Shown piece by piece: positions 19,929 through 21,782 of a stretch of 64,000 bases of DNA. How positions within the stretch are numbered: position 1 is the stretch's first letter; each line of letters opens with the position of its first letter. The stretch is taken from positions 253,968-317,967 of the forward strand of contig CAVSJV010000003.1 of the NCBI GenBank assembly GCA_963728405.1, in the 5' to 3' direction. Origin of the DNA: Methanomassiliicoccaceae archaeon. Lineage in GTDB: Archaea; Thermoplasmatota; Thermoplasmata; Methanomassiliicoccales; Methanomassiliicoccaceae. The notes beneath the pieces are model-generated. The model was not told the origin of the DNA, searched no databases, and saw nothing but the letters and a program-made list of their open reading frames with translations. Position numbers and translations under genes: made by a program.

Positions 19929-21782
19929 GTGCTGCTTGAGCTAGGGGTCCCGCAGGGACAGGTCGTTTCCCGATGGAAGGGGGGCGAGGGGATCGTCAGG
20001 GAGGCTTTGGAGAGGGTCAAGGCGGCCTCCTTCACCGGATACCTGAAGATCAGCCTGTCCAAAGGGGGGGAGCGGTCCGAGGGGCTTATCTCCTTCACCG
20101 GGGGCTGTCCCGTCTTGTGCCTATACGTCTTCCAACCGGCGGGCATGGAGGAGATCTGGTTCCTCGGGGAGAAGGCCGTGGAGTACCTCTGGTATGACGC
20201 GGCGATGGCCGAGGTGGTCATCTCCCTGCATGGGGACATCAGCCTACGGGACTTCGAGCAGCTGTTCCCTGGTGCGAGGATCAAGAGGATCGAGCCACCC
20301 CGCTCGCATCTGACGCCCGATAAGGCGAGGGAAGAAAAACTGCATAGCGCCGAGCCAGAGAACACCGGAGTGCATATGCTGGGCGCGCTGGGGCCGTCGA
20401 TGACCGGAGAGGTGGACCGCCGGAAGGTCGATCAGCAGGCCCGGGGCGTCTATGACCTTATCCTGCAGTACCACAAGATGCAGTCAAGCGCCCAAGGGAT
20501 CAACGCCTGCAGGGACTGCGGCGAGCCGATCGATCTGCTGGGCTATTGCCCCCTATGCGCTTCCAAGGATGACCGCGGGCCGATCGTGCCGCGCATGGAC
20601 CCTCGGTTCACCTTCGATTCCTTCGTGGTCGGGACCAGCTCTCGATTCGCCGAGGCGGCGGCCCGGGCAGTGGCCACCGACCCCGGATACCTCTACAATC
20701 CGTTGCTCATCCACGGCCGGTCGGGGCTTGGCAAGACCCACCTCCTACAGGCCATCGGCCATCAATTAAAGAAGGACCACATCGACCTCAATGTGGTATG
20801 CGTCCCTCTGGAGTCGCTCGAGGAGCACGTACTGGAGTCGCTCGGGAACAAGCAGGGGGAGCTGCGCCAGGAGATGGAAGGAGCGGACATTTTGCTCATC
20901 GACGATATCCAGTTCCTTTCGGGAAAGGAGCGCTTGCAGGATGAGCTACTGAGGGTCATCAACTGCCTGATACCTAGCGGCAAGCAGGTGTTGCTCACCG
21001 CCGATCGGGCGCCCAAGGACATTGCGTCGCTGACGGATCGCCTGGCCTCGCGGATCGAGTCGGGACTGGTAGTGGATATGGGACAGCCGGACTTCGTGGC
21101 CCGCCTGGACATCCTGCGGAAGGTCGTCGCCGATGAGGGATTGAACATCCCGGAAGAGGTCATGGAGTTCGTGGCCGAGATGTGCCCCGACAACGTCCGC
21201 CAACTGGAGGGCGGCATGAACAGGGTGATCGCGTTCGCCTCGCTGATGCGCTCGGACGTCACCCTGGACGTCGCCCGTGAGGTCCTGGGACACGAGAAAT
21301 CGCCGGGAAGGACGATAAGGAAAGAGCTGGTCGACCACCGCTCCTACATAGTTGAAGAGTCCCGCCCCGATCATTGTTACGATATCCTAATCTCCAAGTT
21401 GGACGACGGCTACCGCGGCATGGTCTTCAGCCGCAGCAACCCCGCCTCGATCAGGGAGCGACTGGAAGGAAGGGCGGCAGAGATATTCTGGCTGACCGAG
21501 CGCGAGACCCGGGGCGAGCGGACCGTGCCCCCCTCGTTGGAGAAGATCGTGTTGCTAGCGGAGGACCACATCCATCTGGATGGCCCATCCATAGTCCTAC
21601 TGGACGACCTTCACTACCTGATCAGCAATGCCACCTTCGACGGCGTCATCCGCTTCGTGCGATCGCTGGTCGACCATGTCTCCGAGCACAAGGCATTGTT
21701 CGTGGTCTCGGTGAGCCCGGACAGCCTGAAGGTGCAGGAACGGTCCATTTTAGAAAGGGAGTTGGAACCGATAAAGCCGTGA
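19929..21782 (+). CDS. Multidomain protein: DUF2226-like N-domain, Zn ribbon, DnaA domain III-type AAA+ ATPase, DUF835
   Basis: FTFDSFVVG..YNPLLIHGRSGLGKTHLLQAIG..LLIDDIQ..DRLASR..NVRQLEG matches DnaA domain III. C-terminal FWLT..LLDDLHYL..ILEREL is DUF835-like. Confidence 0.85.
   Translation: MLLELGVPQGQVVSRWKGGEGIVREALERVKAASFTGYLKISLSKGGERSEGLISFTGGCPVLCLYVFQPAGMEEIWFLGEKAVEYLWYDAAMAEVVISLHGDISLRDFEQLFPGARIKRIEPPRSHLTPDKAREEKLHSAEPENTGVHMLGALGPSMTGEVDRRKVDQQARGVYDLILQYHKMQSSAQGINACRDCGEPIDLLGYCPLCASKDDRGPIVPRMDPRFTFDSFVVGTSSRFAEAAARAVATDPGYLYNPLLIHGRSGLGKTHLLQAIGHQLKKDHIDLNVVCVPLESLEEHVLESLGNKQGELRQEMEGADILLIDDIQFLSGKERLQDELLRVINCLIPSGKQVLLTADRAPKDIASLTDRLASRIESGLVVDMGQPDFVARLDILRKVVADEGLNIPEEVMEFVAEMCPDNVRQLEGGMNRVIAFASLMRSDVTLDVAREVLGHEKSPGRTIRKELVDHRSYIVEESRPDHCYDILISKLDDGYRGMVFSRSNPASIRERLEGRAAEIFWLTERETRGERTVPPSLEKIVLLAEDHIHLDGPSIVLLDDLHYLISNATFDGVIRFVRSLVDHVSEHKALFVVSVSPDSLKVQERSILERELEPIKP

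Follow-up and report, generated by a model that had tools for sequence, protein, structure and literature searches.

The stretch of DNA analysed in this work, hereafter the window, corresponds to 64,000 nucleotides from a Methanomassiliicoccaceae archaeon (phylum Thermoplasmatota, order Methanomassiliicoccales; GenBank assembly GCA_963728405.1, contig CAVSJV010000003.1, positions 253,968 to 317,967 of the forward strand). It hosts a gene, called here c0, in which the AAA+ domain of DnaA is fused to archaeal modules. DnaA counts as the signature initiator of bacteria, and archaea are assumed to rely solely on Orc1/Cdc6. From the N- to the C-terminus, the c0 protein carries an N-domain, a helix-like segment, a zinc ribbon of the C4 type, DnaA domain III and, last, DUF835. 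The gene is flanked by thiC on one side and by c2, a convergent gene for a zinc-ribbon protein, on the other; a KaiC-like ATPase gene, c10, and a gene for a coiled-coil protein, c12, are found beyond the gyrase genes (Table 1). A first-pass annotation of the window, made from the sequence alone, had singled out c0 by a set of motifs, and every one of them is present in the c0 translation. The fusion of a DnaA-type core to archaeal modules is confirmed as real, and is wider than that annotation supposed. The frame of c0 is unbroken along its whole length of 617 residues, with conserved catalytic residues. The protein aligns end to end (residues 1-617) with its orthologues at 58-87% identity, and the start codon agrees with the aligned N-termini of the orthologues.

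Table 1. Features of c0 and of its neighbours in the window (positions are those of the window).
Feature	Position	Strand	Residues of c0	Remarks
c0, whole gene	19929..21782	+	617 residues	GTG start; stop codon 21780-21782
N-domain	19929..20303	+	1-125	family-specific; G37, Y38, G59 invariant
SFTGYLKI			34-41	motif in c0 translation
EGLISFTGG			51-59	motif in c0 translation
Conserved helix-like segment	20415..20486	+	~163-186	Y175, D176, Y181, H182 conserved
C4 zinc ribbon	20508..20558	+		C194, C197, C207, C210
CRDC...CPLC			194-197 and 207-210	motif in c0 translation
DnaA domain IIIa, AAA+ core	20598..21077	+	224-383	
FTFDSFVVG			227-235	motif in c0 translation
YNPLLIHGRSGLGKTHLLQAIG			256-277	motif in c0 translation; Walker A = 263-270
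Walker A	20715-20738	+		
LLIDDIQ			322-328	motif in c0 translation
Walker B	20892-20912	+		
LTADRAP			356-362	motif in c0 translation
DRLASR			370-375	motif in c0 translation
Arginine finger	21051-21053	+	R375	
DnaA domain IIIb, lid	21078..21299	+	384-457	TIGR00362 match to residue 457, PDB alignment to residue 453
NVRQLEG			422-428	motif in c0 translation
Sensor II	21198-21200	+	R424	in the lid
DUF835	21363..21764	+	479-612	P-loop-like domain without Walker A motif
c2	21783..22844	-		convergent neighbour; double zinc ribbon (Pfam DZR/Zn_Ribbon) and long helical region
c10	9724..10437	-		single-domain KaiC-like ATPase, intact Walker A; Pfam KaiC 6.4e-27
c12	8621..9689	-		coiled-coil protein, C-terminal zinc ribbon; directly downstream of c10
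tRNA gene	19710..19809	-		Rfam RF00005, 57.1 bits, full model, 100 nucleotides; between thiC and c0

A complete DnaA domain III

The claim that c0 contains DnaA domain III in full is borne out by Pfam, NCBIfam and PDB comparisons, in which both core and lid are complete. Pfam Bac_DnaA (PF00308) matches over profile positions 2-162 of 162, with an E-value of 7.3e-51 and 173 bits; the cut-off of 23 bits is lenient, since the family also matches in three control archaea, and the c0 score falls within the range of true DnaA proteins. The NCBIfam DnaA model TIGR00362 is hit with E 2.8e-78, at profile positions 102-339 of 437 only, and the score (263.9 bits) is below the cut-off of 343.9. The best PDB matches are the DnaA chains 8bv3/8btg (E 2e-61), aligned to residues 223-453 with a single 1-residue gap, followed by the DnaA structures 2z4r (1e-47) and 1l8q (4e-36). 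Other members of the broader assemblage score far lower. PDB matches to Hda (5x06) and DnaI have E-values of 1.6e-8 and 5.5e-5, and the Hda model TIGR03420 (1.9e-27) yields 96.3 bits, under a cut-off of 194.8. IstB_IS21 yields 14.9 bits, under a cut-off of 24.1, and the NCBIfam IstB match (3.2e-9) is far under its own. The DnaC model NF005931 gives E 0.023, E. coli DnaC is not matched by phmmer at E<=1e-5, and an ORC1-type match (0.0067) maps to the DUF835 region. No match to domain IV (Bac_DnaA_C, PF08299) was found in c0 at E<=1; the same model detects the domain in the canonical-type proteins P0232 and P0242. Domain I (DnaA_N) is not matched either, at E<=1 by the whole protein or at E<=10 by residues 1-222. 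A short linker joins the lid to DUF835, which stands in the place of domain IV, as the first-pass annotation had it.

A full scan of 1.84 billion representative proteins with residues 215-460 returned 19,946 matches at E<=1e-3. DnaA proteins of canonical length are 43-47% identical to c0, as close to it as the distant members of the archaeal family. Trees of the AAA+ domain were computed by FastTree (215 rows) and IQ-TREE (quick mode, 83 rows). The Methanomassiliicoccales family forms one clade in both (support 94 and 86, respectively), which also takes in P0199 in both trees and L072, a relative from outside the order, in the IQ-TREE tree. Canonical DnaA proteins, that of E. coli included, make up a separate clade, with support of 93 and 88. 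Outside it lie the remaining archaeal groups and a set of bacterial proteins with tandem DnaA domains, the backbone of the trees being unresolved. E. coli Hda and DnaC fall far outside on long branches, DnaC being the most distant row in both trees. Profile scores, structures and trees thus agree that the core is of the DnaA type, and a grouping with IstB/DnaC or Cdc6 was not seen. The approximately unbiased (AU) test does not reject monophyly of the 36 archaeal-type rows (p-AU 0.683), the constrained tree having a likelihood 8.9 log units above that of the free search; this group of rows was named partly after the tree had been seen. The first-pass annotation had described the ATPase as horizontally acquired. 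The trees do not bear this out, as archaeal sequences form a clade or clades of their own, nested in no bacterial group; for this reason a bacterial origin of the archaeal domain by horizontal transfer is no more than plausible.

Conservation of the active site was scored on 94 family rows, near-duplicates included, mapped on E. coli DnaA (RefSeq). Residue numbers are those that we take to apply to the E. coli protein, their sequence contexts having been checked against the RefSeq entry. The lysine of Walker A and the DD pair of Walker B are present in 94/94 rows, the aspartate of sensor I in 93/94, the equivalent of R281 in 89/94, and the arginine finger in 84/94. The sensor II arginine is found in 84 rows as well, and is replaced by serine in eight and by glycine in two. 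Positions involved in contacts with single-stranded DNA and in filament formation are also largely kept: the V211-equivalent is I, L or V in 72/94 rows, the K243-equivalent is K or R in 93/94, the L290-equivalent is L in 89/94. The R245-equivalent is an arginine in 64/94 family rows, versus 18/61 rows of canonical DnaA. At the R227-equivalent, arginine is found in 42 rows and glutamate in 32, c0 carrying E317. Taken at face value, the residue pattern is that predicted for an active, self-associating ATPase of the DnaA type.

Modules flanking the AAA+ domain

The anatomy of the N-terminal half was derived from alignments of 13 full-length members and 17 N-terminal regions. The N-domain looks private to the family. 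A profile search retrieved 28 proteins, 26 of which carry Bac_DnaA and DUF835, the other two being short and free of recorded domains; one protein was returned when shorter sequences related to the N-domain were sought, no paralogue was found in the same genome, and no significant match was obtained in the PDB. The N-terminus had been described as DUF2226-like, a similarity which stays below threshold. The N-terminal part alone matches PF09987 with E 0.015 and 15.2 bits, against a cut-off of 22. One of the 17 family N-termini matches at E<=1, as do two of four distant N-domains (0.029 and 6e-4; best score 19.8 bits), and all matches are confined to the first ~113 of the 252 profile positions. 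No DUF2226 match above cut-off occurs in 201 Thermoplasmatota genomes, and none was found in the genome of the window. Similarity to DUF4388/PATAN-type domains (PF14332) was seen in one of the 17 regions (E 0.086), and an hhalign comparison of the N-domain alignment with the DUF4388 region of protein P0080 gave a probability of 0.2%.

After the N-domain come a variable linker, extended by an insert of ~100 residues in the larger members of the family (~700-750 residues), and a short conserved segment that we infer to be helical. The four cysteines of the C4 ribbon are invariant in 13/13 aligned full-length members, and zinc-ribbon matches to Pfam are weak. The ribbon is missing from the short forms of the family described below, and from L072.

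DUF835 is recognised with confidence at the C-terminus (PF05763; E 4.7e-21, 75.4 bits, cut-off 33.1, profile positions 4-136 of 136). No Walker A motif (GxxxxGK[ST]) is present in residues 479-612, and no KaiC match (PF06745) was found in c0. In the available text of PMC5847659 the domain is labelled an inactivated KaiC ("DUF835 (iKaiC)"), and response regulators of the REC–DUF835 type are listed for Methanomicrobia and Thermoplasmata. The best PDB match of the DUF835 profile is FlaH (4yds), at a non-significant E of 0.1. The first-pass designation of this region as a DUF835-like inactive KaiC fold therefore holds for DUF835, and for the KaiC fold comes down to the published label and the FlaH match. 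The genome has 12 DUF835 matches. In seven of the seven other proteins scanned the domain is C-terminal, and the preceding modules are REC, 7TM (in two proteins), V4R, HhH/DUF5915, or a region free of Pfam matches (in two). An output or transmitter module would behave in this way. The 7TM module of the two paralogues is HisKA_7TM (loci L002-L009), and three DUF835 genes are clustered at ~88-92 kb of contig C2.

Conservation of the locus

Nineteen loci cut from the order were compared with the window, making up a set of 20 that spans six families. The slot formed by thiC, c0 and the convergent c2 gene is kept in 19/20 loci, c2 directly adjoining c0; one locus of the set stops at a contig end, and thiC was unrecognised in one. 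The wider gene order is conserved as well, and reads c12 – c10 – gyrA – gyrB / thiC – c0 / c2 – nfo-like – ... – OGG – HTH – Lhr, where HTH denotes a helix-turn-helix gene. Databases hold ~77 proteins combining Bac_DnaA and DUF835, 38-87% identical to c0; those with a name are assigned to Methanomassiliicoccus, Methanomassiliicoccales or Thermoplasmata.

c0 appears to be monocistronic, as it is separated from thiC by a tRNA gene on the opposite strand, and its stop codon abuts that of c2. Co-transcription with thiC is unlikely because of the same tRNA gene. The latter was not reported by ARAGORN; given its length of 100 nucleotides, it possibly contains an intron. The listed thiC reading frame runs through it on the other strand. 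AT-rich stretches ~30 and ~85 nucleotides 5' of the GTG codon are putative TATA-like elements. The stop codons of c0 and c2 adjoin with no spacer (21780-21785), and tail-to-tail distances of 0-5 nucleotides are found also in L042, L043 and L048. The two transcripts would therefore overlap at their 3' ends, or share a terminator.

Two genes for Orc1/Cdc6 reside in the genome, on another contig. In 5/5 relatives assembled in large contigs, the best Orc1/Cdc6 gene is located 43-67 kb from the c0 orthologue; the region is syntenic, and these five cases amount to about one observation. The window ends at the contig end, 44 kb beyond c0, which fits the location of Orc1/Cdc6 on a different contig. 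The proximity of c0 to gyrB was considered as a possible relic of the bacterial dnaA–gyrB cluster. The idea is unsupported: the two genes are divergent, with thiC and the tRNA gene in between, and the arrangement is absent in 5/5 loci outside the order.

Long, short and null variants

The occurrence of c0 in the order was surveyed in 151 genomes, using the c0 protein as query (E<=1e-20). Matches were found in 74 genomes, and 77 had none. Forms containing the AAA+ domain are present in 41 of the 74 positive genomes, and the remaining 33 have only a short form of 334-368 residues; in 110 of the 151 genomes, either the AAA+ block is absent or c0 has no match at all. Short forms occupy the same slot, and consist of the N-domain, the helix segment (with its ..YH(K/R).. 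signature) and DUF835. What they lack is exactly the zinc ribbon plus domain III. On this evidence, N-domain, helix and DUF835 may be seen as a constant scaffold, and zinc ribbon and AAA+ block as an optional insert. In a tree of the DUF835 domain, eight short forms group together in a clade (99/99) that lies among five lineages of long forms, and the outgroups are long forms as well. Since short forms are one clade among long-form lineages, their origin by one deletion in one lineage is the most parsimonious reading. A candidate relic of the lid in short forms (a "..DN.R.." string near sensor II) was discarded: in the alignments it corresponds to the insert of the long variants, and it precedes the helix, an order that differs from that of the long form.

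Genomes with no match belong to one family (f7, 0/64 positive) and, in part, to the same family as the window. Five of them were inspected. All retain gyrA/gyrB, thiC and Lhr, and c0, c2, c10 and c12 are all missing in 5/5; these five are also among the genomes scored as negative for c10 or c2 below. The nfo-like gene, OGG and c8, a further gene of the block, could each be identified in three or four of these loci. In two other genomes, G063 and G066, c0 alone has been cleanly lost, and c12–c10–gyrA–gyrB–thiC–c2 are kept. c0 is thus dispensable in relatives.

A set of co-occurring genes

Searches of the same 151 genomes identified c10 in 74 and c2 in 76. c0 and c10 are both present in 70 genomes and both absent in 73, with four genomes carrying c0 only and four c10 only; for c0 and c2 the figures are 73, 74, one and three, respectively. 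Several of the single-gene cases correspond to incomplete genomes. c0, c10, c2, and probably c12, are therefore a set of genes kept or lost together. The first-pass annotation had placed c0 in a KaiC/zinc-ribbon network, a notion which gains independent support from the order-wide co-occurrence with c10 and c2, and from the recurrence of DUF835 as C-terminal module in the genome.

The partner genes have peculiarities of their own. The listed reading frame of c2 continues to 23237, and orthologues match only to 22844. c10 is 65-94% identical across the order, and its NCBIfam matches of the KaiC type are all under cut-off. In the window, its frame is open back to the stop codon of an IS605-family TnpB gene, with no ATG, GTG or TTG before the P-loop (9724-10479, minus strand). 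The TnpB gene (10480-11604, minus strand; OrfB_IS605 and Cas12f1-like TNB domains) is directly upstream of c10, and is absent from this position in other loci. c12 is split in two frames in this assembly, the change occurring at ~9344, and its lower boundary is approximate. Its orthologue in L048 has DZR/Zn_Ribbon Pfam matches and matches of the coiled-coil type, and in locus maps c12 adjoins c10.

In 3/11 loci beyond the order, the gene directly downstream of that encoding DnaA domain III is KaiC-like (L076) or Rad51/RadB-like (L130 and L131). The Rad51/RadB-like genes (L130, 7346-8029; L131, 3575-4267; both on the minus strand) lie 3' of genes for DnaA-III–DUF835 proteins in two other families. 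In L131 the two genes overlap by four nucleotides, which suggests an operon.

Related proteins in Archaea and Bacteria

c0 is not unique, but one member of a phylum-wide radiation of proteins carrying DnaA domain III. In a search of 401 Thermoplasmatota genomes with the AAA+ part as query (E<=1e-25), 44 were positive, and 17 of 262 among those of high quality. One family stands out, 23 of its 24 genomes being positive. Single genomes hold up to six matches (G233 and G295); the genome of the window has one Bac_DnaA match. Ten such proteins were scanned for domains. Four have the arrangement N-terminal region–DnaA-III–DUF835, three carry DnaA-III alone, and three combine it with a double zinc ribbon. 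Bac_DnaA_C was found in 0/10. Three further representatives are also DnaA-III–DUF835 proteins, and the N-termini of the distant DUF835 forms are of the same motif type as that of c0. The double zinc ribbon occurs in L074, L069 and L073; in L076, DnaA-III is preceded by a hydrophobic, membrane-type N-terminus; and L078/L079 are proteins of ~430-485 residues made of DnaA-III only. All these proteins share with c0 the type of AAA+ domain; six of the ten scanned differ from it in architecture, and the neighbourhoods differ. Public automatic names for the homologues are varied: "chromosomal replication initiator protein DnaA", "DnaA/Hda family protein", "DUF835 domain-containing protein" and "FlaH".

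Bacterial DnaA and c0 have in common the AAA+ core and lid, Walker A and B, sensors I and II, the box VII arginines, and the positions contacting single-stranded DNA. In contrast to DnaA, c0 is devoid of domains I and IV, scores below the TIGR00362 cut-off and falls outside the canonical clade; it resides in an archaeon bearing Orc1/Cdc6, is flanked by the N-domain, the zinc ribbon and DUF835, and is dispensable in relatives. Hda/HdaA, like c0, is an AAA+ protein of the DnaA family with no domain for binding DNA boxes, and sets a precedent for a regulatory, non-initiating role. Yet Hda is a single-domain protein, whereas c0 has four further modules, and the similarity of c0 to Hda is far weaker than that to DnaA. 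Orc1/Cdc6 and DnaC/IstB belong to the same broad AAA+ assemblage of initiators and loaders, with marginal scores only.

Bacteria host a large set of proteins of ~650 residues with two tandem Bac_DnaA domains and no Bac_DnaA_C (P0079-P0121, P0081, P0123 and others). Those with a taxonomic name come from Gemmatimonadales, and some are called "DnaA/Hda family protein". P0080 (833 residues) carries in addition a C-terminal DUF4388 domain, and in P0122 (1876 residues) and P0126 (1990 residues) the tandem pair is at the C-terminus. These proteins resemble c0 in having DnaA-III but no domain IV, and in lying outside the canonical clade. They differ because they are bacterial, have a tandem AAA+ arrangement, and carry neither DUF835 nor the N-domain. 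We know of no described function for them. A C-terminal DUF835 is common to c0 and to the REC–DUF835 response regulators, but in c0 the module upstream of it is a DnaA-type AAA+ domain, accompanied by the zinc ribbon and the family-specific N-domain. The combination of N-domain, zinc ribbon, DnaA-III and DUF835 is not mentioned in the available text of PMC5847659. In agreement with the first-pass annotation, which took c0 for the best candidate for an uncharacterised system in the window, no description was encountered in the literature searched, including the accessible portions of PMC5847659, PMC4158269, PMC11880632 and PMC11706807; a paper on KaiC-like ATPases (mBio 2017) may list the architecture.

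Possible role of c0

The above data may be reconciled by supposing that c0 encodes a dispensable, ATP-dependent and possibly single-stranded DNA-responsive oligomerising switch of the DnaA family, which is no initiator and feeds a KaiC-type network. In our estimate the chances of this being correct are about even. The switch would operate as follows. Upon ATP binding, the arginine finger would mediate head-to-tail stacking of the DnaA-type modules. Stacking might take place on single-stranded DNA, because the positions through which DnaA contacts it are kept. Assembly would alter the way in which the N-domain and the DUF835 output module engage c10 and the zinc-ribbon partners, and ATP hydrolysis would reset the system. 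Replication would be initiated by Orc1/Cdc6, and not by the c0 protein. A non-initiating role is indicated by the absence of Bac_DnaA_C, the two Orc1/Cdc6 genes, the 77 null and 33 short-form genomes, and the clean loss of c0 in G063 and G066.

Several findings weigh against such a switch, or weaken the case for it. The co-occurrence of c0, c10 and c2 is phylogenetically structured, most genomes lacking both members of a pair being in family f7; since these genomes come mostly from one family, independent loss events are few. The whole block of ~20 kb, which includes gyrase, thiC and repair genes, is syntenic throughout the order, and adjacency of the neighbours alone accordingly says little. 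Outside the order, none of the neighbours seen in the window was found in 5/5 loci. The comparison by hhalign of DUF835 with the KaiC-like family of c10 revealed no similarity (probability 1.8%). Finally, serine or glycine replaces the sensor II arginine in 10/94 rows, and the AID-1-equivalent arginine is a glutamate in c0; because of these substitutions, some DnaA-specific functions may be altered.

The main rival to the switch is a factor for DNA transactions, whose DnaA-type module would form filaments on single-stranded DNA in an ATP-dependent manner, like DnaA on the unwinding element. Its tasks would lie in recombination, repair or the restart of replication, and its RecA-like DUF835 domain would contact proteins of the RadA/RadB type instead of serving in signalling. 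We deem this alternative rather unlikely, though a serious contender. Positions for contacts with single-stranded DNA and for filament formation are no less conserved than in the 61 rows of canonical DnaA, and c0 must contain the initiator-specific insert, since it aligns to DnaA structures with just one gap, of a single residue. Yet c0 has no domain for binding double-stranded DNA, and short forms maintain the scaffold with no AAA+ block at all. The context can be argued both ways. Gyrase, an nfo-like TIM barrel, OGG and an Lhr-type helicase belong to the conserved block, and Orc1/Cdc6 is 43-67 kb away in the five relatives, which through synteny are not independent; but the block hosts also thiC, Thi4, a methyltransferase and an adenosine kinase, and hence is no repair operon. 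Similarly, one DUF835 paralogue has HhH DNA-binding motifs, and Rad51/RadB-like genes are directly downstream in L130 and L131, but this adjacency is seen in just 2/11 loci outside the order. A broader proposal, which we rate as unlikely, is that Thermoplasmatota DnaA-III ATPases, in which the residues of DnaA for filaments and single-stranded DNA contacts are kept, assemble on unwound or damaged DNA, and report through DUF835 to KaiC-like or RadB-like ATPases as a checkpoint of DNA status.

Two further alternatives place c0 in replication itself. As an Hda-like regulator, domain III would dock on Orc1/Cdc6, and its arginine finger would modulate the ATP state of the initiator. Hda offers the precedent of a DnaA-derived domain III with no domain IV, and is matched by c0 in both NCBIfam (1.9e-27) and PDB (5x06, 1.6e-8) searches; the finger is conserved in 84/94 rows, and c0 is origin-proximal in the five relatives with Orc1/Cdc6 43-67 kb away. 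The domain is nonetheless much nearer to DnaA than to Hda, c0 is not adjacent to Orc1/Cdc6, and c0 has no match in 77/151 genomes, Orc1/Cdc6 genes having been looked up in the five relatives and in the genome of the window, all of which bear c0. A role of this kind seems very unlikely. Even less credible is a true initiator of the bacterial type, or a second initiator serving an integrated element. The public name of the homologues, "chromosomal replication initiator protein DnaA", and the fully DnaA-like AAA+ core speak for it; the lack of domains I and IV, a score below the DnaA equivalog cut-off, and the presence of Orc1/Cdc6 genes speak against it. Moreover, in many relatives c0 is lost or deprived of the AAA+ block while the locus stays, and the gene lies in a conserved chromosomal block and not in a mobile element. 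That the fusion is an artefact, due to chimeric assembly, to bacterial contamination or to decay of a pseudogene, might have been suspected because the source is a metagenome-assembled genome with 4.07% estimated contamination, and several neighbours of c0 in the window differ from their orthologues by changes of frame. The probability of this is negligible. The suspicion is refuted by the occurrence of the same architecture in the same slot in 19/20 loci, which come from independent assemblies of six families and include single-contig genomes; in addition, ~77 database proteins have the same pair of domains, and in c0 the frame is intact and the catalytic residues conserved. The fusion is therefore no assembly chimera.

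An intact DnaA-type engine is apparently maintained under selection in archaea, with no origin recognition and joined to signalling modules. The family is in this respect a natural experiment on the capacities of DnaA domain III alone, and an entry point to the poorly understood archaeal network of KaiC-like and DUF835 proteins. The four-gene set of c0, c2, c10 and c12, with its natural long, short and null variants, is open to biochemistry. Should the checkpoint exist, archaea would have built a device to monitor DNA status from the engine of the bacterial initiator, and the DnaA AAA+ module would be neither purely bacterial nor purely initiator. Public annotation needs correcting, as homologues are called initiator proteins or FlaH.

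Other features of the window

Frame changes with respect to orthologues were noticed in thiC (18411-19845) near 18600, in gyrA (11751-15774) twice, and in c12 (8621-9689) near 9344. The pattern suggests indel errors of the assembly rather than pseudogenes. thiC has a possible extra frame change at a G-run near 19645, its cysteine motif and a stop codon at ~19698 being found in another frame. The N-terminal part of gyrA (14509-15774, minus strand) contains Intein_splicing and LAGLIDADG domains. gyrB (15785-18145, minus strand) encodes 786 residues, compared to 631-648 in several relatives and >1000 in others; its length fits the presence of a mini-intein, and Hint-like motifs are visible in the translation. 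Intein content varies among relatives. A protein of 1493 residues (2248-6729, minus strand) features four CARDB repeats and C-terminal double zinc ribbons. At the edge of the syntenic block, the conserved Lhr-type helicase (26426-31804, minus strand; 1792 residues) carries an AlkZ-like/wHTH C-terminal extension.

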